Position numbers and translations under genes: made by a program | Notes under the pieces: generated by a model | The model's database searches: none | What the model was told of the DNA's origin: nothing | What the model saw: only the letters and a program-made list of their open reading frames with translations | Shown here: in pieces, positions 846 to 12,266 of the stretch | Layout of the letters: each line of letters opens with the position of its first letter | Numbering within the stretch: position 1 is the stretch's first letter | Virus genome (UHGV): UHGV-0059442 | Source: a virus | Reading direction: 5' to 3' (one strand) | DNA: 12,316 bases

Positions 846-1250
846 TCATTCCATTTCAAGATCATCAATCTTCACTTCGAGTTCAATACTGGTCGTAAAA
901 CCATTATTCAGCGTTTCCCGAAAATCAGCACTTCGCGCCCGGATAGTCAGGCGGTCCGGTGCGCCAGTGTGTTCAATCTCGTCCACTGTGAATGCCCCTT
1001 TCGGGAAAAGCGGCTGCCCCTTCCAGCCCAGCGCCAGCGTAATAACCGCACCACGGCGCGGCAGCACGATTTTTCCGTCAGCGTCATCCAGCTCCAGATC
1101 AAGCTGGTCCGCTTCAAAGCCCCGGTTATCCGTCAGCGTCAAACTCATCAGGCGGTTATCCAGCACAGTGGTGATATCCCTGCCCTCAATACTGATGCTG
1201 AATGCGGGAGTTTTGTTGCCTTTGTTAAGCAGTTCAGAGCTGAAATTCAC
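846..1250 (-). pseudogene. D: Tail protein D (late control gene D family) remnant, only 134 aa; probable internal in-frame deletion
   Basis: N-terminal ~115 aa carry the gpD-family signature (TDNRGFEADQLDLELDD...PRRGA...LGW.G...G.FTVDEIEHTGAPDRLTIRARSADF); the last ~18 aa (GFTTSIELEVKIDDLEME) look like a D-protein acidic C-terminus. Full-length P2-type D proteins are close to 390 aa. GTG start at 1250 overlaps the U stop (GTGA). Confidence 0.7.
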
Positions 1251-1426
1251 GACAGCAGCCCTCCCACCGTTTTACTGATATCGCTTAAGGCAGACGTTGC
1301 CGTGTCCTGCAGATTATTCAGTTGCGCACTGAGATCACCGAACATATCGGACAGGGATTCATCCACTCGTTTGAGCGACAGGGTGAACTCAATCCGGCGC
1401 GGCATACCGTCCCGGATAGAGAAAAA
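1247..1426 (-). pseudogene. U: Tail protein U, C-terminal fragment only
   Basis: PFFSIRDGMPRRIEFTLSLKRVDESLSDMFGDLSAQLNNLQ... matches the C-terminal part of P2-type gpU (the ...RKIDFTLSLTRVDESL... region); the N-terminal two thirds are absent and the frame upstream runs into the J reading frame. Confidence 0.65.
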
Positions 1427-2087
1427 TGGTGGCTTCCACACGGTACGGGATGATTTCTGCACTGCGAACCGTCAGACGGTCAGCCACCGGGCGGACGTTC
1501 TCACTGTTCAGGGCTTTTTCCACCACATCCAGCAGGTCTTTTTCTGCTGTTCCGTCGCCTTCGCGGCTAAGGACTGTCAGCACCACCTCTGCAGGTGCCG
1601 GACTGGTTGCACTGGCATCCGCCACCCGACCGTCGGCGCTTCGGGCATGAAATTCATAAGCTGCAGTTGGCCCCGCAACTGAAAGCCCCTCAAAGGCTGC
1701 AGGCACACGCAGGCGTAACGCTTCATCGCTTTCCATCACAGCTGCAACGGGCGGCACAGCGTCATCATCAGCAGGCGTCACCGTCAGGCGTTTCACGTTG
1801 TAGTTGGCAGCGAGCTGGTCCAGATCGCCGCCCATCGCGTAAGCCACCATCACCGCCTGCGCGGCTTCGTTAATGCGCTGGCGCAGAAGCAACTCACGGT
1901 AAGCGTTCTCCTGCAGCAATTTGGTGACGGGTTCAGATTCCAGTTCCAGCGTGCGGATCACAGCCTCCTGCTCATCTTTCGGATGAAGCGCCACAAATTC
2001 TGCCTTGCGTTCGGCAAGCAGCGTCTCAAAGTCCGGCACATCCACAATCTGCGGCGCAGGCAACTGCGAAAGGTCAATCACTGCCAT
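1389..2087 (-). pseudogene. J: Baseplate assembly protein J, N-terminal ~225 aa only (truncated)
   Basis: MAVIDLSQLPAPQIVDVPDFETLLAERKAEFVALHP...LESEPVTKLLQENAYRELLLRQRINEAAQAVM matches gpJ N-terminus; the ORF stops at 1389 after about 232 aa whereas gpJ is about 300 aa; start ATG at 2087 overlaps the W 3' end. Confidence 0.8.
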
Positions 2088-2433
2088 TCTCTGCTCCTGT
2101 TGATACGGAAAGGGACACAGGCACACCGTTATTCCGCCGCCCGGTCAGCTCCACCACCATTGAACCGTCAAAATTGCTGTTGATGGTGATGGAATCCAGC
2201 GTCAGCCGTGGCTCCCAGCGACTCAGTGCCACATACACAGCCGACATGACCTGCAGGCGTAACGCCGGATTTTGTGGCTGATCTATTAAAGCCGACAGCA
2301 GGGAACCATATTCCCGGCGGGCAATGCGGCTACCCTGCGGTGTCAGCAGAATGTCCCGCACCGACTGGCGCAGATGGTCAATATCAGTAATAGCTTTACC
2401 GCTGGTATTGTTCATCCCGCTATAAAGCGTCAT
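2074..2433 (-). CDS. W: Baseplate wedge protein W (GPW/gp25 family)
   Basis: 119 aa; ...DIDHLRQSVRDILLTPQGSRIARREYGSLLSALIDQPQNPA...RWEPR... is typical of gpW/gp25 lysozyme-like baseplate proteins; ATGA overlap with the V stop. Confidence 0.85.
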   Translation of the reverse strand: MTLYSGMNNTSGKAITDIDHLRQSVRDILLTPQGSRIARREYGSLLSALIDQPQNPALRLQVMSAVYVALSRWEPRLTLDSITINSNFDGSMVVELTGRRNNGVPVSLSVSTGAENGSD

Positions 2434-3008
2434 ACCGGACCTCCGGTGGTATCGCCGCCTTTCAGGACGCCAGTATGCTGATGCGCATCAACCACGATCC
2501 CGTTAGAACTCATCGCTCCGCCGCCCTGGGTAACGCCACCATTGATCACCACTTCGCTGTTAATGCGCGTGCGGTCAGCCTCCAGTACAAACTCACTGGT
2601 TTTCATGGTGATGTTGTCAGCGGCCTCAATGACCATTGATTTGATGCCCCTGACATACCAGCGCCCACTGGCGGGTTCGTATTCAAACCAGCCACCGTCA
2701 GGATGTTCTGTCACGCAGGCGTCCGCCGACGTCGACGGTGGTGCGAACTGATTCGAATAGACAGCGGGCAGCGCAAAGGCCGTCTCCAGATTGCCGCCCA
2801 GACTCAGCAGCACCACCTGCTCACCTTCCGATGGTTTCCACCATGTGCGGGCATTACCCGCGCGCAGCGTCAGCCAGTTAATCCAGTTGGTTTCAAGGTC
2901 GCCCGTTTTCACCCGGCAAAGCCAGTTTTCCCGGTCCACTTCGGTGACTACACCAGTGCGGATCAGGTTGGTGATAAGGCGCATGATTTCGGTTAATTGT
3001 GCGTTCAT
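2430..3008 (-). CDS. V: Baseplate spike/assembly protein V
   Basis: 192 aa; N-terminus MNAQLTEIMRLITNLIRTGVVTEVD...WINWLTLRAGNARTWWKPSEGEQV and C-terminal HTGV...GGDTTGGPV resemble P2 gpV. Confidence 0.85.
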   Translation of the reverse strand: MNAQLTEIMRLITNLIRTGVVTEVDRENWLCRVKTGDLETNWINWLTLRAGNARTWWKPSEGEQVVLLSLGGNLETAFALPAVYSNQFAPPSTSADACVTEHPDGGWFEYEPASGRWYVRGIKSMVIEAADNITMKTSEFVLEADRTRINSEVVINGGVTQGGGAMSSNGIVVDAHQHTGVLKGGDTTGGPV

Positions 3009-3054
3009 AGGGAAAGGTTGCCATCAGGGGAAGAAAGGCGGCAGTGCTGCAACT

Positions 3055-3072
3055 TGTATCAGTGCTGATACA
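3055..3072 (-). promoter_or_regulatory. Candidate Ogr-dependent late promoter element (TGT-N12-ACA dyad) upstream of V
   Basis: TGT (3055-3057) - 12 nt ATCAGTGCTGAT - ACA (3070-3072), embedded in the near-perfect palindrome TTGTATCAG TG CTGATACAA, located in the S-V intergenic gap directly upstream of the V start. Confidence 0.5.
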
Positions 3073-3076
3073 AAGA

Positions 3077-3523
3077 TCATCCCGCCAGCCATTGCAGAAT
3101 CATGTCGCGGGTCATTGCCTCAACATCATCATTTACACCCAGCAGGCGGCGCTCTGCGTAACGGACCTCCGGTCCTTTGCGACTGACGCGATCACGCAGG
3201 CCGTAATGGTGAACACGGGCAATACGCTGCACCTTGCCTTCAAACTGTACGCTGGCAGAGTCGGCGCTGGCGGCAGTTTTCAGGTATTTTGTGGTGCGCA
3301 ACTTTGCAAACATCTGACGTTTGATGCGGCCTTTCTTGCTGCGTGCTGTTACCCTGCGCGGTTCATAACTGCTGCCATCTGGATTGCGCTGCATCCTGAT
3401 ATTCTGCTGCTGTGTCCGGCGCAGTTCCTGCGCCAGCTGGCGCATCATGCGGCTTCTCGTGGCTGGTTCCAGATTCGCCAGCAAGGCACTCAGCCAGTCG
3501 TCCACCTTCTGCAGTTCAGCCAC
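3077..3523 (-). CDS. S: Tail completion / virion morphogenesis protein S
   Basis: 148 aa; position between R and V and the MAELQKVDDWLSALLANLEPATRSRMMRQLAQELRRTQQ... pattern fit the gpS family. Apparent GTG start at 3523, 4 nt after the R stop. Confidence 0.75.
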   Translation of the reverse strand: MAELQKVDDWLSALLANLEPATRSRMMRQLAQELRRTQQQNIRMQRNPDGSSYEPRRVTARSKKGRIKRQMFAKLRTTKYLKTAASADSASVQFEGKVQRIARVHHYGLRDRVSRKGPEVRYAERRLLGVNDDVEAMTRDMILQWLAG

Positions 3524-3947
3524 GTTTCACCGTCCACATTTCTTCAGGTGCATCAGGTTCCGCTATAGCTTCAACGCTCGACACACTGCCGTCAGTGCTG
3601 ACCAGCACACGTTCCGTCAGTTGCAGGTTCAGGCTGATATCACAGACATCGTTGCGCAGAATATCCACCTCAAAGGTGAATAGCTTTTCCCGTAACGCCG
3701 GGTTATTGATGGCATCGGGCTGGTTATCCCTCAGCCACAGCAAAACCGGGGCCATCAGCAGATTCTGGTCGCCGCTGAAATCCTCAATCACCGCGTTCAG
3801 TGTGTAACGGTACTCCCACGACATGGAGCTGGCCCCCGTGGCAACCAGCGAACCGTTATCCACAAACAGATGCAGTTTGTCCGGGTTATTGCGGACATAA
3901 GGCACCGCTTTATTGAGGGCGTGGCGCAGGGATTGTGGTTTGTTCAC
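3516..3947 (-). CDS. R: Tail completion protein R
   Basis: ...KPQSLRHALNKAVPYVRNNPDKLHLFVDNGS...YRYTLNAVIEDFSGD...PVLLWLRDNQPD resembles P2 gpR; I place the start at the GTG at 3947, preceded by an AGGAG SD, rather than the upstream start at 3968. Confidence 0.75.
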   Translation of the reverse strand: MNKPQSLRHALNKAVPYVRNNPDKLHLFVDNGSLVATGASSMSWEYRYTLNAVIEDFSGDQNLLMAPVLLWLRDNQPDAINNPALREKLFTFEVDILRNDVCDISLNLQLTERVLVSTDGSVSSVEAIAEPDAPEEMWTVKRG

Positions 3948-4200
3948 TGTTTCGCTCCTGACACGCAATAATCATGTCCACTTTGTCTGCACAGACCGCC
4001 CAGGCGGCCTCCGTTTCATCCAGCAACGCGTTCAGGCCACCGTTAGTGCGCGGCGCTGCCTGTCCCAGCCGACACGGCGTCACTCGCGGACAACCACTGA
4101 CGGTAAGCTGCACCTCCGGTGAGTGTGGGGCGTTCCCGCAGCCGGATAATGTCAGCAGGCAAAGGTGTATCAGCCCAGCGGCGTAAATCCTCGTTCTCAC
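3910..4200 (-). CDS. lysC: Outer-membrane lipoprotein spanin (Rz1-like), embedded out of frame in lysB and overlapping R
   Basis: Signal peptide with lipobox (MRTRIYAAGLIHLCLLTLSGC), Pro-rich mature part; nested in the +1 frame of lysB and extending into R exactly as P2 lysC does. Start uncertain (apparent GTG at 4200). Confidence 0.65.
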   Translation of the reverse strand: MRTRIYAAGLIHLCLLTLSGCGNAPHSPEVQLTVSGCPRVTPCRLGQAAPRTNGGLNALLDETEAAWAVCADKVDMIIACQERNSEQTTIPAPRPQ

Positions 4201-4471
4201 GTTTCAGTTCCTCAATCCGGTGTTGTCGTTGTCTCAGCAGTACACTGGTCTGTTCTGCTTCGGCATAGAGCCGCGCCTGCTCCCGGTTATTGGTTTCAGT
4301 CAGAATGGACAGGCTGATAAGCTGGCTATTGCTCTTTGCCAGTGCCTGGCTTTTGCTCTGCAGCTCGTCTGCCTGCGTGCTGATGGTCTGGCTGGCATCA
4401 GCCAGCCGCCACGTCTGCCAGCCCAGCGCCGCCAGTAATAACGCCAGCACAACCAGCAGCAACCGGTTCAT
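4043..4471 (-). CDS. lysB: Inner-membrane spanin (Rz-like)
   Basis: 142 aa; N-terminal transmembrane helix (MNRLLLVVLALLLAALGWQTW) followed by coiled-coil-like, Q/E/R-rich periplasmic domain; position immediately upstream of R with lysC embedded. Confidence 0.8.
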   Translation of the reverse strand: MNRLLLVVLALLLAALGWQTWRLADASQTISTQADELQSKSQALAKSNSQLISLSILTETNNREQARLYAEAEQTSVLLRQRQHRIEELKRENEDLRRWADTPLPADIIRLRERPTLTGGAAYRQWLSASDAVSAGTGSAAH

Positions 4472-4575
4472 GCTGATACCTGTTGCGCCATCTGATTACG
4501 GGTGATCCAGAAGGCAATAACGGTCAGTAGATAAAAGACCAGGGTAATAGCCCACCCCGTCCAGCGCCAATCGCT
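4471..4575 (-). pseudogene. Remnant 3' end of the gene preceding lysB (lysA-like membrane protein), ~33 codons
   Basis: Reading the minus strand in the frame whose TGA overlaps the lysB ATG (ATGA) gives ...DWRWTGWAITLVFYLLTVIAFWITRNQMAQQVSA*, a hydrophobic helix tail. The frame is closed by a stop about 35 codons upstream and there is no start, so only a C-terminal stub remains. Confidence 0.4.
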
Positions 4576-5084
4576 TTATGCAGACGCGCCCGTGACTGGT
4601 CCGGCATATCCAGACCGTCTGTCAGCTCCAGCGTCTGCAACAACAGATCGGCATCAAAGCCGGTGGCGGCAAGCATTGCGCTCTGCGCGGCGTCTGCCAT
4701 TTCCTCTGCCAGCACGGTCTGCACGTTGCGGTTACCCAGCGGCATCACCCAGCCATGACGCAGGGCATGACGCCCGATCTCCAGCGCCCCGGCATAATCT
4801 CCGGCATCAATGCGCCACAGCATCACGTACATCAGCACGTCATCCTGTTGAGCGCCTCCGGCAGCCAGGACACCCTCTGCCCAGGCGGCGTACTTCGGCA
4901 GCAGCTCCACCTTGATTTCCGCTTTTTTGACCGTGGACTGAACGCCCTTGAGACGGCGGCGGTCTTCCGCCAGTTGCAGCAGCATCAGGTCATAGCCCGA
5001 TGCGTGGCGAACACTGCCGCCCTCGCGGGCGGCCTGTTCAGCCTGAACGCGCAGGCGATGCTGCCGTGCGGGACTCAGGCTCAT
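4524..5084 (-). pseudogene. M: Terminase endonuclease (small) subunit M, C-terminally truncated
   Basis: MSLSPARQHRLRVQAEQAAREGG...LLPKYAAWAEGVLAAGGAQQDDVLMYVMLWRIDAGDYAGALEIGRHALRHG... matches P2 gpM over about 175 aa, then ends in a non-matching tail (...GRGGLLPWSFIY*) at 186 aa; P2 gpM is about 250 aa. Confidence 0.8.
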
Positions 5085-5087
5085 GGA

Positions 5088-6146
5088 TTACGCTCCGGTT
5101 TCGGCTGCGGCGGCGCTGAAATCACCAATCTGGATGTTTTCCACCAGTGCGGCGCAGCGGTAGTCCTCAACCACATAGGCTTCATTAACGGATTCAAAGT
5201 TTTCAATCCGGTCACGTTTCGGGTTGTCGATAACTGAACGGCGGCGGGTGTCTTCCTGCCAGTAGATGGACAGGTTATCCAGACGGGTGATCAGCAGCGC
5301 ATTCGGCGGGAAGAACGGCGCACGCACGGCCTGCAGGCCACCCATGCGTTTCTGGCTGATGATCATATCGGCAGCCAGTTTTTCACTGTTTTCCTGCTCT
5401 TTGTTGACCAGCGGGAAATACTTGTCAGACAACAGTTCACGACCGCAAATCACCACCAGATCGTCATCGTCCTGGTAAACCACGTCGATAAGCTCATTGA
5501 CGGCATCCATCACCACAGCGTCCAGGTTGGCATATTCGCCACCTTTCCCGACTTTCACCGCACCCGGAGTGGTTTCACCGCCCGTGGTGGTGCTGCCCAT
5601 GACGTGATCCGGTGCATCCTCACGGATTTTCTGCAGCCAGCCTTTGTTCACATCCTGCAGCAGCGGGTTTTCGCTACGGTTGGAGGTTTTCGCACGCTTC
5701 ACGCCGTTAAAGCCGATCATGATGCGGTCCAGTGCCTGACGTTTCACGATGGCGTCACGGATGCGCACCTGGAAATCCTGAAACTTCGCCCACAGATCCA
5801 GCTTCGCGTAGGTCAGCACCGTGTCAAAGTTGGTCTGCTCGCATTTATATTCCACATCGACCATCAGGGTCGGATCGACGGGTTCACGCTCTTTCGCGGT
5901 GGTGTCAGTGGTTCCGGCAATGGTGCTGCCAACACCCAGCCCCAGCAGCTGACCGGACTGCTCAGTCACTGGCGTGACGTTAATCAGCGTCAGGAAAGCG
6001 GCGGACTGCTGGATCTGGTCCTCCAGCGTCTGCTGCACAGACGGCTCCACAGTGAATTTGCTGGACAGTTCTTCAACTGCCACACCGTTCAGACGCGCCA
6101 GCTGCTGCAGGTAAGCGTTAAAAGCAAAGCGGGTATTCTTCTTCAT
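5088..6146 (-). CDS. N: Major capsid protein N
   Basis: 352 aa, size and sequence typical of P2 gpN; immediately downstream of O, with its stop 3 nt before the M start. Confidence 0.9.
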   Translation of the reverse strand: MKKNTRFAFNAYLQQLARLNGVAVEELSSKFTVEPSVQQTLEDQIQQSAAFLTLINVTPVTEQSGQLLGLGVGSTIAGTTDTTAKEREPVDPTLMVDVEYKCEQTNFDTVLTYAKLDLWAKFQDFQVRIRDAIVKRQALDRIMIGFNGVKRAKTSNRSENPLLQDVNKGWLQKIREDAPDHVMGSTTTGGETTPGAVKVGKGGEYANLDAVVMDAVNELIDVVYQDDDDLVVICGRELLSDKYFPLVNKEQENSEKLAADMIISQKRMGGLQAVRAPFFPPNALLITRLDNLSIYWQEDTRRRSVIDNPKRDRIENFESVNEAYVVEDYRCAALVENIQIGDFSAAAAETGA

Positions 6147-6162
6147 CGGGTTTTGTGCTCCA

Positions 6163-6996
6163 TCAGCAATTGGTCAGAGTGTCAGCGGGGGCGTTACCGC
6201 CTGTTGCACGCTGGCGGTAGTCCTGGCGGCTGTCTACATGACTCAGCTTATTCACCAGTTCGTTAAAGGCGGTCTGCTGTGCCTGCAGGGCAGTCTCCAG
6301 CTCAGACAGACGTTCTTCCTGCTCAGACAGGGATTTTTCGGTGCGTGCGCTCAGGTTCTGCTGCTCAGTGGCGACCAGCTCCACGGCCTTATGCACATCA
6401 GAGAACCGGGCGTCATCGGACTGCTCTTTTTTGGTAAACAGCGCCGTGACGCGGGCAAACAGGGACGGTTTGTCGTCCTGGACTTCTTCCAGTTCGATCA
6501 CCGTTTCCTCTGCGGCGGTAAAGAGATTGGCGGGATTCTGCTTGCGGTTTGCCAGCGGGTTATGGGCTGCACTGGCGCTGAATGTCAGCATTTCAGTGCC
6601 CAGACTGGCAGGGTCATCAGTGGCAGCCAGGCCGACCAGGTAGGCTTTGCCCGTATCAGCGAACTTCGGGCTGACTTCCATAGAGGTGAATAATTTCTGG
6701 CCTTTTTTCACCAGCTCCACCAGGGACTCCGTTGGCTCAACGTCGGCATACAGCGCCATCTTGCCTGCCAGCGGACCTTCCGTGATTTCTTCAGCAAACA
6801 GCGCCGTCACCTTGCCGTAGCGGTTAAAGGTGCTGTCCGGCAGATAAGACTTGATGTGCTCAAGGTTAATCAGCGCGGTATACACCGCCGGGTTATAGCT
6901 GGCTGCCATCTGTTCCAGCCATTCACGCTGGATTTCGCGTCCGTCGGTGGTGGCACCTTCCACCCCGATGCGAAAACGCTTTGCTTTCACTGTCAT
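6163..6996 (-). CDS. O: Capsid scaffolding protein O
   Basis: 277 aa; FRIGVEGATTDGREI...INLEH...YLVGLAATDDPASLGTE...SDDARFSDVH...ATGG...TNC closely resembles P2 gpO; GGAG SD about 9 nt upstream of ATG at 6996. Confidence 0.9.
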   Translation of the reverse strand: MTVKAKRFRIGVEGATTDGREIQREWLEQMAASYNPAVYTALINLEHIKSYLPDSTFNRYGKVTALFAEEITEGPLAGKMALYADVEPTESLVELVKKGQKLFTSMEVSPKFADTGKAYLVGLAATDDPASLGTEMLTFSASAAHNPLANRKQNPANLFTAAEETVIELEEVQDDKPSLFARVTALFTKKEQSDDARFSDVHKAVELVATEQQNLSARTEKSLSEQEERLSELETALQAQQTAFNELVNKLSHVDSRQDYRQRATGGNAPADTLTNC

Positions 6997-7009
6997 GAGC
7001 CGTGCTCCG

Positions 7010-7432
7010 TTAGAAAAAACTTACTGGAGCCTTATGGTTGCGGTGATAGGGGCAGTGAAACAATGCGCGGTATTTGTACCGACAACCGTGACGATTGAGA
7101 TACAGGAAATATACCGCTTTCATGAAATCAGTAATTTCAGTTGAGTAATTAAACTCCTGCCTTATGTTGTAATAAGCTACCTCCCTGTTTGCGATCTCAA
7201 ATAAAACTCTGGCGCGAGATATAAACGATTCACAATCAGCGGCAACCTTTTTATAGAGGTTGATTAAATCAGGATTAATATCCGCAACCAGATAGCTGGG
7301 GTAATCCGTCTCCATCATCACAGCACAGGAACCCGCGAAAGGTTCAACCAGTCGCGGGCCAGCAGGAAGGTGTTTTTTCAGTTCGGACATAATGGCGGTT
7401 TTATTTCCCGCCCATTTCAGGATGGTGCTCAT
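7010..7432 (-). pseudogene. dam: DNA adenine methyltransferase (Dam, D12 class), N-terminal ~120 aa only
   Basis: From the internal Met: MSTILKWAGNKTAIMSELKKHLPAGPRLVEPFAGSCAVMMETDYPSYLVADINPDLINLYKKV...FLYLNRHGCRY... carries the AdoMet-binding motif (EPFAGS) and aligns with the first part of E. coli Dam, but the ORF ends at 7010 without the catalytic DPPY motif. Start ATGA-overlaps the upstream traR-like gene. Confidence 0.8.
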
Positions 7433-9379: not shown

Positions 9380-10012
9380 ATGATACAAGTAAAAGCTGGC
9401 GAGAATACAGGGGGAAGAGAGGCTATCCATAGGCTAATGGCAGCCTATGATTTCAAGTCCAGACAGCAACTTTGCGATCACTTGGGCGCATCAAAAAGCA
9501 CTATGGCAAACAGATACTTAAGAGATAGTTTTCCTGCAGAATGGGTGATTCAGTGCGCTTTGGAAACAGGAGTTTCTTTACTGTGGCTAACTACCGGACA
9601 GGGCGATCCAGGTTCAAACATTGACCCTAAAAGAAATATCAATTCCGTGAACTCTAGCAAAGTTAAACCTCTTTCGGAGCTTGTATCTCCTGAAATTGAC
9701 AAGGCAACTCTCAACGGAGGTTTGCTGATCGATGCTGGAAAAGCAATCATTGATAGCAGCATACTCCCCTCAGACTCAAGCAACCTGCTGCTGGTGACTA
9801 CTTCTGGTGATTCTTATTTAATAGATCGCAACCAAACACCACCAGTAAATGGTACGTGGTTAGTGGACATCGACGGGATAAAAAGCATTGTAAAATTGAC
9901 ACGACTCCCGGGAAACAGATTAGTAGTGCATCAGGATGATTCATCGTTTGAGTGCGAACTGGATGACATTGAGGTAATAGGCCGCGCACTGAAAATCATT
10001 AAGAGCCTTTGA
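9380..10012 (+). CDS. cI: CI-type immunity repressor (186-like, HTH N-terminal domain plus C-terminal domain)
   Basis: 210 aa; N-terminal HTH (SRQQLCDHLGASKSTMANRYLRDSFPAEWVIQCALETGVSLLWL); sits immediately upstream of int and divergent from apl. Size fits 186 CI rather than the ~100-aa P2 C. Confidence 0.8.
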   Translation: MIQVKAGENTGGREAIHRLMAAYDFKSRQQLCDHLGASKSTMANRYLRDSFPAEWVIQCALETGVSLLWLTTGQGDPGSNIDPKRNINSVNSSKVKPLSELVSPEIDKATLNGGLLIDAGKAIIDSSILPSDSSNLLLVTTSGDSYLIDRNQTPPVNGTWLVDIDGIKSIVKLTRLPGNRLVVHQDDSSFECELDDIEVIGRALKIIKSL

Positions 10013-10013
10013 T

Positions 10014-11036
10014 ATGACCATCAGAAAACAGCCGAACGGAAAGTGGTTATGTGAATGCTACCCAAACGGGCGAGATGGCAAACGCGTACGCAAACAATTT
10101 GCGACGAAAGGCGAAGCCATTGCGTTTGAGAATTTCACCATGGACGAGGTAAACAAGAAACCTTGGCTAGGAGAAAAAGAAGATCGGCGACAACTGTCAG
10201 AAGTGATTGAGCAGTGGTATTCCCTGTATGGTCAGACACTCGCTGACCCAAAGCGTTTGATGGCAAAATTAAAAATTATTTGTACCGGTCTCGGCAATCC
10301 TATTGCCTCGGAACTGACAGCAGGTGATTTCACAAAATATCGGGAAGCCAGATTAAAGGGGGAGGTCAAAAATGAAGACGGTGTTTTCATGTCCCCCGTA
10401 AAACCTCGCACGGTTAATCTTGAGCAGCGTAACCTGTCATCTGTATTCGGCACATTGAAAAAACTAGGACACTGGTCAGCACCAAACCCATTGGCAGGGC
10501 TTCCAACATTTAAAATTGCTGAAGGTGAATTGGCATTCCTATCTCAGGAGGAAATTAAACGCCTACTTGACGCCTGCGCAAACTCTCAAAATCCAAGTCT
10601 GTTGATGATCGCAAAGGTATGCTTGGCTACCGGCGCGCGCTGGAGTGAAGCGGAAAACTTACAGGGCCACCAATTATCAAAATACCGTATTACCTATACA
10701 AAGACGAAAGGAAAGAAAAATAGGACAGTACCGATATCTCAGGCTCTCTATGACGAACTCCCCAAAAACAGAGGGAAGTTATTCACGCCATGCAGAAAGG
10801 CTTTTGAACGAGCGGTCAAACGGGCTGGTATTGAACTGCCTGAAGGTCAGTGTACCCATGTTCTGCGCCATACATTCGCCAGTCATTTTATGATGAACGG
10901 TGGAAACATACTCGTTTTGAAAGATATTCTTGGGCATTCAGATATTAAAATGACTATGATTTATGCACATTTTTCCCCTGATCATTTAGAAGATGCAGTA
11001 ACTAAAAATCCACTTTATTCGCTATTAAAGGACTAA
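10014..11036 (+). CDS. int: Tyrosine integrase (P2/186 family)
   Basis: 340 aa; C-terminal catalytic region ...HVLRHTFASHFMMNGGNILVLKDILGHSDIKMTMIYAHF... with conserved Arg, His-x-x-Arg and Tyr; ATG 1 nt after the cI stop. Confidence 0.9.
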   Translation: MTIRKQPNGKWLCECYPNGRDGKRVRKQFATKGEAIAFENFTMDEVNKKPWLGEKEDRRQLSEVIEQWYSLYGQTLADPKRLMAKLKIICTGLGNPIASELTAGDFTKYREARLKGEVKNEDGVFMSPVKPRTVNLEQRNLSSVFGTLKKLGHWSAPNPLAGLPTFKIAEGELAFLSQEEIKRLLDACANSQNPSLLMIAKVCLATGARWSEAENLQGHQLSKYRITYTKTKGKKNRTVPISQALYDELPKNRGKLFTPCRKAFERAVKRAGIELPEGQCTHVLRHTFASHFMMNGGNILVLKDILGHSDIKMTMIYAHFSPDHLEDAVTKNPLYSLLKD

Positions 11037-11039
11037 ATA

Positions 11040-12266
11040 ATGACTCTCCATCAAACTTTATCTAAAGAATTAAGAGATTTATTTGTTAGTATTTTAAGAC
11101 GTTCTCTTTTTCGCCCCCCCATCAAAATAAATGGGGATATAGTCTCTGATTTTTCAAACAGATGCGAGCAGTTCAAAGAGTGCCTAAATGAATACATTTG
11201 TGATAACAATAATGCTGCTTCCGAAAGAGTTAAGCCAAGAATTAAAACTATTGAAAAAATACAACATGGATTAACTAATTCTCTTAAAGCATTTTTATCT
11301 GGCGACATTAAAGGAGCCTACGATATTTTTGATGAAGTTTTATCATACCCTACTGTCTATAGACATCTAAGAAGAATATCCATTCCACTAAAAGAAATAT
11401 GTAATAAGCACAAGCCTTTATTCAGGGTAAGAAAGTCAGATAGACCAGTCGTAACAAGAAAGGAAATATTTCATATCCCATTCACTCATCGACATCTTGT
11501 CAATGCTCAACGCTACTCCGTTGCAGGTTTGCCATGCCTTTACTTAGGTTCATCTCTCTATATATGCTGGCAGGAAATGGATAAACCTGACTTTGATAAA
11601 TTATACCTATCATCATTTATATCTTGGGATGAGGAATCTTATATTTTAAATTTAGCTGCAGATTTTCTTTACAGTAGAACCGCTAAAGGATTTTACGGTG
11701 ATATTAGTAATAGAGATAACCTCATTAAAATATCATATTTAACTTTATGGCCTCTGATAATTGCATGTAATTATTTAAAGCAGAATGAAAACTCTTCATT
11801 TAATCAAGAATATATCATCCCAAATTTGTTAATGCAGTGGATAAGTCGACTTGAAGATAGAGCTATTGTCGGCATAGCATATCGCTCAACAAAAATAAAA
11901 AGAACAGCAAACTCACACTTAGCAACTAATGTCGTCTTGCCTCCAAAAGTAAACTATGAAGATACAATCACAAAACCTTATTGTCAGAAACTATTGTCAA
12001 TGTTTGAGTTTACTCAACCTGTATCATGGCAGGTTTTGAAAACATTAGACTATAAAATTGATAATGAAATAAATCAAGAGCAAGAAAAAGCAATTCATTT
12101 ACTAAAACAGAAAGAAAGATTAAGTGGCATACAAGATTTAAATGAAGATCTTATAAACCTTTATCCTTTAACAGACTTCTACAAGCTAGAACAGTGCATG
12201 GATCGCCTGCTACAGTATGATGTACTTGAGATAAAATCTGGCGGCACTTTGGCGGCAGAGCATTAA
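11040..12266 (+). CDS. RES-domain protein with N- and C-terminal extensions (putative standalone toxin/defence effector)
   Basis: 408-aa ORF, ATG 3 nt after the int stop; strongly AT-rich. Central region shows RES-domain hallmarks: LFRVRK..., AQRYSVAGLPCLYLGSSLYICWQEM (compare the G-R-W-N...P-x-L-Y...E core of RES toxins) and the C-terminal motif IAYRSTKIKRTANSHLATNVVLPP (compare ...PSA...N-x-V-L). About 125 aa upstream and 100 aa downstream of the RES core are unassigned. Confidence 0.6.
   Translation: MTLHQTLSKELRDLFVSILRRSLFRPPIKINGDIVSDFSNRCEQFKECLNEYICDNNNAASERVKPRIKTIEKIQHGLTNSLKAFLSGDIKGAYDIFDEVLSYPTVYRHLRRISIPLKEICNKHKPLFRVRKSDRPVVTRKEIFHIPFTHRHLVNAQRYSVAGLPCLYLGSSLYICWQEMDKPDFDKLYLSSFISWDEESYILNLAADFLYSRTAKGFYGDISNRDNLIKISYLTLWPLIIACNYLKQNENSSFNQEYIIPNLLMQWISRLEDRAIVGIAYRSTKIKRTANSHLATNVVLPPKVNYEDTITKPYCQKLLSMFEFTQPVSWQVLKTLDYKIDNEINQEQEKAIHLLKQKERLSGIQDLNEDLINLYPLTDFYKLEQCMDRLLQYDVLEIKSGGTLAAEH

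Follow-up and report, generated by a model that had tools for sequence, protein, structure and literature searches.

A divergent RES-domain gene in an int-attP cargo slot of a 186-like prophage, a candidate single-protein NAD+-depleting phage defence

Introduction

What does a gene do that is lodged between the integrase gene and the attachment site of a prophage and that differs in composition from all its phage neighbors? This question is raised by UHGV virus genome UHGV-0059442, a DNA stretch of 12,316 nucleotides (hereafter the window), in which a 408-aa open reading frame (ORF) follows cI and int. The initial annotation had read its product as an unusually long RES-domain protein that lacks an Xre-type antitoxin, may act as a single-gene defence effector and is not part of a described system.

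Stand-alone RES proteins have since become known as immune proteins. The aRES proteins comprise 300-600 aa and carry an N-terminal PF18870 domain (Osterman et al., bioRxiv 10.64898/2026.01.28.702374, January 2026). They protect Escherichia coli: phage infection triggers the conversion of NAD+ into nicotinamide and ADPR-1''P, and growth is arrested (bioRxiv 10.64898/2026.01.28.702374). The catalogue of aRES proteins was filtered for an above-threshold Pfam annotation as RES and, in addition, for PF18870 as identified by HHsearch against Pfam (bioRxiv 10.64898/2026.01.28.702374). Here, we ask whether the ORF product is a RES enzyme, whether it stands alone, and how it relates to aRES.

Results

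An AT-rich gene lies between int and the attachment site of a decayed prophage

The window holds a decayed P2/186-like (186/Fels-2-type) prophage remnant of about 12 kb, which is integrated at ssrA. At position 7084, a truncated dam is joined straight to the late gene that encodes the gpO scaffold, so that the remnant lacks replication gene A, cos, Q and P. Positions 58-907 consist of a BRCT-domain gene and ogr. The only counterpart of positions 905-1416 in the PK5 prophage is a D/U fragment of 512 bp, with about 0.7 kb of the D gene of PK5 being skipped. Prophage junctions are located near 905, 1394-1416 and 7084, and a large part of the tail region is absent. In E. coli F95, a P4-like satellite with an integrase, psu and an ogr/delta-like gene is located in tandem directly past the prophage att copy at ssrA (L001, 8679-14039; L numbers denote the loci used for comparison).

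The ORF sits inside the prophage, flanked by int and the ssrA attachment core. In E. coli copies of the locus, which share 97-99% nucleotide identity, a copy of the ssrA 3' end occurs about 140 nt past the ORF stop; the window itself ends about 60 nt short of the ssrA att core. Since the gene has int on one side and the ssrA att copy on the other and is present in phage genome records, it was ruled out that the ORF is host DNA. The probability that a run of 408 stop-free codons arises by chance at this composition is about 1e-14. The ORF is a real gene, since homologues spanning its full length were found at 41-79% identity, and its intact product is identical to that of a 171-member cluster. 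Its GC content is 0.331 (GC3 0.259), compared to 0.442 for int, 0.441 for cI and 0.570 for the late genes (900-7087), which bears out the earlier observation that the gene is far more AT-rich than the rest of the prophage. The coordinates of the gene and of its parts are compiled in Table 1.

Table 1 Features of the window that are relevant to the ORF. Positions are those of the window; residues are numbered according to the ORF product.
Feature	Position	Strand	Remarks
cI	9380-10012	+	186-type; Pfam Phage_CI_repr and Phage_CI_C
int (tyrosine integrase)	10014-11036	+	Pfam Int_N and Phage_integrase
AAGGA, Shine-Dalgarno-like motif	11028-11032	+	7 nt 5' of the ATG, within the last int codons
408-aa ORF, ATG start	11040-12266	+	putative stand-alone divergent RES-domain protein; PHROG 7835
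N-terminal all-helical bundle, aa 1 to ~120	11040-11399	+	predicted; AlphaFold2 pLDDT 80-97
RES/ADP-ribosyltransferase-fold core, alpha/beta, aa ~124-335	11409-12044	+	predicted; AlphaFold2 model
R129	11424-11426	+	
R131	11430-11432	+	
R158	11511-11513	+	
Y168	11541-11543	+	
E179	11574-11576	+	
S283	11886-11888	+	
N297	11928-11930	+	
C-terminal helices, aa ~336-399	12045-12236	+	predicted; AlphaFold2 model; moderately conserved
Two direct repeats TGGCGGCA	12239-12246, 12250-12257	+	fit the arm-site consensus of 186-type Int; overlap with the final 9 codons of the ORF

Within this gene of 33% GC, a C7 homopolymer is present at 11114-11120 (codons R25-P26-P27). The copy in E. coli PK5 has C6 instead of C7 and is therefore a frameshifted pseudogene, indicating that the gene is dispensable; int of PK5 is interrupted by IS1. 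The C7 run may act as an on/off site that is prone to slippage, or it may be incidental.

In phage 186, cI and int are transcribed from the lysogenic promoter. The window shows the corresponding arrangement, with apl/cox-like and cII genes (Pfam) diverging on the other strand. As the initial annotation had stated, the ORF starts 3 nt past the int stop codon (TAA, 11034-11036), the coordinates 11036 and 11040 being in agreement. No terminator-like sites occurred between 9000 and 12316, and promoter-like sites were not more frequent in this region than expected by chance. The short gap, the motif resembling a ribosome binding site and the lack of a terminator-like site suggest that the ORF is co-transcribed with cI and int in the lysogen, and it is thus probably part of the same transcript. 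In SopEPhi, the homologous gene overlaps int by 4 nt.

The int-att slot is a hotspot of exchanged cargo

We compared the slot in 80 viral contigs with a 74-95% identical integrase, in 55 of which the att core downstream of int was located. In 15 of these 55 loci the slot was empty, with int and the att core lying just 149-212 nt apart, and in another 15 it held a member of the RES family, at one locus together with an additional 317-aa gene. The most frequent cargo (17/55) was an unannotated protein of 324-373 aa with N-terminal transmembrane helices (representative L070, 7016-8137; further L016, L033, L035, L043, L058, L061, L063, L064, L067, L073, L079, L080, L083, L088, L089 and L092). Searches of Pfam, PADLOC and NCBIfam gave no match to this protein, which is a candidate defence or exclusion gene product. 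Four loci contained an unannotated predicted membrane protein of 207-222 aa (L076, 7027-7696; L018, L020 and L048). Known anti-phage genes were found as well, namely a dCTP deaminase at two loci (NF041025, 419 bits, cutoff 400; PADLOC dCTPase, E 5e-141) and GapS1 at one (NF047931, 393 bits, cutoff 320). A gapS1 gene also occupies the slot in E. coli E308 (NF047931, 428 bits, cutoff 320). GAPS1 has been described experimentally as an anti-phage gene (bioRxiv 10.1101/2023.03.28.534373). The defensive character of the slot nevertheless rests on guilt by association, as most of its cargo is uncharacterized.

The cargo ORFs usually start 0-30 nt past the end of int. The distal edge of the slot is marked by the TGGCGGCA repeats, which correspond to the 186-type Int arm-site consensus tgccGCCActt (PMC3448106). 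Unrelated cargo proteins of the sister phages share the C-terminal tails GGTLAAE[HS] or GGKVATEH because their ORFs read into the conserved attP DNA with these repeats; the tail is thus constrained by the DNA and not by the protein. These findings show that the region from int to att is a cargo hotspot, and they agree with the earlier proposal that the ORF was acquired separately, given that sister phages carry either nothing or unrelated genes at the same place.

In E. coli, the anti-phage hotspots carried by P2-like phages and by P4 satellites adjoin cos, and a hotspot in Vibrio is located between cI and int (Rousset et al. 2022, PMC9122126). The slot described here shares with these hotspots a locus size of 0-2.3 kb, a high gene turnover, conserved phage anchors on either side and the presence of known defence genes. 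It differs in its position, since it extends from int to the attP arm sites in phages of the 186/Fels-2 type that integrate at ssrA. In the literature that we searched, we found no description of an int-attP hotspot.

The ORF product belongs to a large family with a divergent RES core

The protein of the window scores 11.6 bits (E 0.29) against the Pfam RES profile (PF08808), below the cutoff of 23.2, so that the assignment required evidence at the level of the family and of the structure. Among the homologues, RES was matched by 13 of the 28 close ones and by 8 of 10 distant ones, the top match among the latter scoring 21.5 bits and covering positions 11-141 of the 157 in the profile. In a set of 60 diverse members, 38 matched at E<=0.1 with a best E of 6.3e-6. 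These family-level matches point to RES, while the single protein stays sub-threshold. The conserved RES blocks noticed earlier in the central part of the protein are indeed present and form the most conserved section of the family. Apart from RES, no Pfam family recurred across the members; the weak matches of the N-terminal domain to DUF19, GAT and DUF1948 were not consistent between members and were rejected.

An exhaustive profile search in metagenomes and genomes returned 2,678 clusters (50% identity) at E<=1e-3, most of them 350-400 aa in length. The family gene is carried by the phages Cartapus, RE2010, SopEPhi (orfY) and Bacillus phage SPbeta. Some records already name family members as RES, i.e., a CDS of phage Cartapus, yopC of SPbeta in RefSeq and a few UniRef entries. 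In PHROGs, the only matching family is 7835, which is labelled 'unknown function', and scans of the ORF product with PADLOC and NCBIfam gave no match.

The AlphaFold2 model of the ORF product (pLDDT 74.9, pTM 0.77) shows three regions. The central one is predicted to adopt the three-dimensional RES/ADP-ribosyltransferase fold, and the top structural matches of the model were MbcT, Res and NatT, all of which are NAD+ phosphorylases or NADases. Foldseek searches against PDB and BFVD returned nothing significant, and sequence-profile searches against PDB with the close and the diverse alignments retrieved helical-bundle noise for the N-terminal domain but no RES chain; structural support is hence moderate rather than strong. 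The model also displays the N- and C-terminal extensions expected from the initial annotation, which had noted that the protein has about twice the size of a classical RES toxin (408 aa compared to 144-250 aa for the solved toxins). We propose that the N-terminal helical domain may be a sensor or auto-inhibitory module. The C-terminal helical region has no Pfam match; its conserved residues are Y375, L377, D379-F380, K382 and E384. Taken together, the ORF very probably encodes a RES-fold enzyme that rides as exchangeable cargo between int and attP.

The residues required in aRES are conserved

In the 60 diverse members, which are 25-53% identical, R131, H145, R158, G163, P165, Y168, W177 and E179 are invariant, and R129, S160, S283 and N297 are conserved in at least 90%. 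Alignment with hhalign placed these residues on those of aRES, with R129 corresponding to R182, R131 to R184, R158 to R215, Y168 to Y225, E179 to E236, S283 to S334 and N297 to N349. In aRES, R182, R184, R215, Y225, E236 and S334 were each changed to alanine, and the active-site point mutants lost defence (bioRxiv 10.64898/2026.01.28.702374). As all six residues required in aRES are conserved, the ORF product is predicted to be catalytically competent. R158, Y168 and N297 also agree with the R-Y-N signature of the RES clade (PMC9503650).

No antitoxin gene accompanies the ORF

The toxins of the Xre-RES, MbcA-MbcT, ParS-ParT and NatR-NatT pairs share with the ORF product the RES/ADP-ribosyltransferase fold and the positions R...Y...E...S...N. 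However, these toxins comprise 144-250 aa and are always paired with an Xre/COG5642 antitoxin gene, whereas the ORF product has 408 aa, two additional domains and no partner gene. No Xre/COG5642 (DUF2384) antitoxin gene is present next to the ORF between int and att, and the stretch of about 140 nt after the ORF stop leaves no room for a second gene in front of the ssrA att core. A downstream partner, which would have made the locus an ordinary toxin-antitoxin pair, is thus lacking.

Two hidden partners were considered and rejected. An antisense ORF at 11051-11308 had a positional match in only one of 15 sister loci (L078). CI consists of Phage_CI_repr and Phage_CI_C and not of DUF2384, and in phages with a 74-95% identical integrase the slot is empty or filled with unrelated cargo. 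Among the neighbors of distant family members (L005-L010), we found no HTH or Xre gene. These neighbors differ from each other and include GmrSD and AAA_12 fragments with IS66, a Gabija-like ATPase and a helicase, a pentapeptide-repeat protein, PDDEXK_3 and YopA. The absence of an Xre antitoxin, as claimed before, therefore holds both between int and att and beside the distant members, where none is conserved.

The family has branches of different architecture. SPbeta YopC (NP_046625), which is named 'RES domain-containing protein' in RefSeq, is a prophage-borne member with 31% identity over residues 67-335 (E 7e-34). It differs from the ORF product in its length of 442 aa and its origin from a Firmicute phage. 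Directly 5' of yopC lies yopB, which encodes a 75-aa HTH regulator (L095, 2288-3951), so that some branches of the family may be two-gene modules; our literature search found no function for yopC. Another distant member, P0151 (L006, 3522-5357), is a protein of 611 aa in which the N-terminal domain and the RES core of the family are fused to a C-terminal LlaMI-type restriction endonuclease. Its gene adjoins those for a Gabija-like OLD-TOPRIM ATPase and a UvrD-like helicase. A further distant member is located amid the GmrSD and AAA_12 fragments.

The family is related to, and distinct from, aRES

As references for aRES, we used the first 399-400 residues of three validated proteins from Table S4 of the preprint. 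The family aligned with these by hhalign over 207 columns with a probability of 92% (E 6.4e-7), and with 90% (E 1.7e-6) when only the RES cores were compared. Both the ORF product and aRES are encoded by single stand-alone genes without an antitoxin and fall within 300-600 aa (here 408). In addition, both families consist of an N-terminal accessory domain followed by a homologous RES core, and both occur in Enterobacteriaceae and in defence contexts.

The N-termini, in contrast, are unrelated. That of aRES is the Cys-rich PF18870 domain (HEPN/RES-NTD1), which starts with CxxC...CxxC, while that of the ORF family is a helical bundle. By hmmscan, PF18870 was absent from the window protein, the 28 close and the 60 diverse members, but was detected in two aRES controls with E values of 3.6e-4 and 2.7e-10 (21-41 bits). 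An hhalign comparison of the N-terminal domains yielded a probability of 0.3%, which equals the negative control. The two families also differ in the Pfam RES score (11.6 bits for the window protein, 53-55 bits for two aRES controls), in an invariant FHIPF/H145/W177 block that is the ORF family's own, and in genomic position, the prophage int-attP slot as opposed to a chromosomal island. None of the 12 IMG genomes that carry the ORF family in the int-att slot is listed in the aRES catalogue (Table S2). No precomputed Pfam domain exists for any of the 120 homologues listed, which would thus not pass the first filter of that catalogue.

Judged by these domain profiles, the ORF family is outside aRES as defined. 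The earlier statement that the protein belongs to no described system has accordingly aged in part: as to the kind of system it was overtaken by the aRES preprint in January 2026, and as to this particular family it stands. The reading as a single-gene defence effector now has a direct experimental precedent in stand-alone aRES. The ORF product is most likely a relative of the aRES immune proteins, since it is a putative stand-alone RES protein in a slot where sister phages carry known anti-phage genes.

Discussion

Our findings suggest, with a probability of roughly 60%, that the gene encodes a single-protein abortive-infection enzyme that is expressed in the lysogen, destroys NAD+ and is auto-inhibited until infection. 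If so, the ORF would be moron cargo in the variable slot that extends from int to the arm sites of attP. The enzyme would be present in the uninfected lysogen in an inactive state, restrained by its own N- and/or C-terminal domains instead of by an antitoxin gene product, and infection by another phage would activate it. The RES core would then cleave NAD+; as with MbcT, NatT and aRES, the most likely reaction is a phosphorolysis that yields nicotinamide and ADPR-1''-phosphate. The resulting NAD+ depletion would arrest the cell, so that the infection aborts. Co-transcription, auto-inhibition, trigger, NAD+ chemistry and anti-phage phenotype are all parts that we infer.

A variant of this scheme keeps the defensive role and changes the chemistry. 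ParT modifies Prs, and the RES core may likewise ADP-ribosylate a specific host or phage protein rather than deplete NAD+. The two chemistries are inseparable from sequence alone; we nevertheless consider the ParT-like variant rather unlikely, because MbcT, Res and NatT, which matched best by structure, are NAD+ phosphorylases and NADases and because every residue required in the NAD+-depleting aRES is conserved. Alternatively, the gene may be a prophage addiction module, i.e., a RES toxin that stabilizes the prophage and is neutralized in cis by its N-terminal domain, or by a small RNA or CI. All characterized short RES proteins are toxins of toxin-antitoxin systems (PMC9503650), the gene has remained intact in a heavily deleted prophage remnant, and SPbeta yopC is preceded by the HTH gene yopB. 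Yet no partner ORF fits into the slot, the antisense ORF at 11051-11308 is positionally matched in 1 of 15 sister loci only, and distant members have no conserved neighbors. Moreover, sister phages with 74-95% identical integrases have an empty slot or unrelated defence genes, which argues that CI is not a dedicated antitoxin, and we therefore regard addiction as unlikely.

Further away from defence, the gene may serve lysogenic conversion by acting on host NAD metabolism, persistence or virulence. SopEPhi-type phages carry virulence morons, and orfY of SopEPhi is a member of the family. NatT, one of the top structural matches, is reported to drive persister formation (PMC11535050). Such a role appears improbable for a family that is spread over about 2,700 clusters and includes a gene of Bacillus phage SPbeta; besides, the ORF product has no secretion signal or effector-like feature, and the context of the slot is one of defence genes. 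That the gene is a non-functional or decaying passenger of a dead prophage would fit the loss of A, cos, Q, P and a large part of the tail region as well as the frameshift in the C7 run of the PK5 copy. It is very hard to reconcile with an intact ORF that is identical to a 171-member cluster, with catalytic residues that are invariant across 25-53% identity and with the presence of family genes in the functional phages Cartapus, RE2010 and SopEPhi, and we consider it highly improbable.

Returning to the NAD+-destroying defence enzyme as the favored reading, its wider meaning depends on how the family is placed. Single-gene RES immunity is already known, and so is the RES label on a few family records. 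New are a large separate lineage, whose accessory domain differs, and its location in a prophage hotspot that is not described in the literature searched. Tentatively, and at somewhat less than even odds, we propose that this family of about 2,700 clusters, YopC included, forms a second lineage of stand-alone immune enzymes, separate from aRES, in which the NAD+-phosphorylase core is coupled to a different helical sensor and which, here, resides in an undescribed int-attP hotspot with cargo exchanged like cassettes. With its different sensor domain, such a lineage would respond to other phage triggers and might escape inhibitors that are specific for aRES (aRad1).

If correct, immunity of the aRES kind by NAD+ phosphorolysis would be broader than the published catalogue, as the ORF family has neither an above-threshold Pfam annotation as RES nor an hmmscan match to PF18870. 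About 2,700 clusters would gain a function, among them cargo of SopEPhi, RE2010, Cartapus and SPbeta. The combination of a RES core with a different N-terminal domain would offer a naturally occurring comparison of the ways in which stand-alone RES enzymes are held in the off-state and then triggered, and it could be tested whether phage counter-measures such as the Macro phosphatase NARP1-AP and aRad1 generalize over RES lineages.

The int-attP slot itself is a compact hotspot that is easy to anchor, and the two unannotated membrane-protein cargo families that are abundant in the loci compared here are candidate new defence genes. At the locus where the slot holds two genes (L032, 8270-9223), the RES-family gene is followed by that for the 317-aa protein before att is reached. 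This protein had no match in Pfam or PADLOC and contains a motif, R-N-H-I-I-H-H, that resembles the HEPN motif Rx4-6H.
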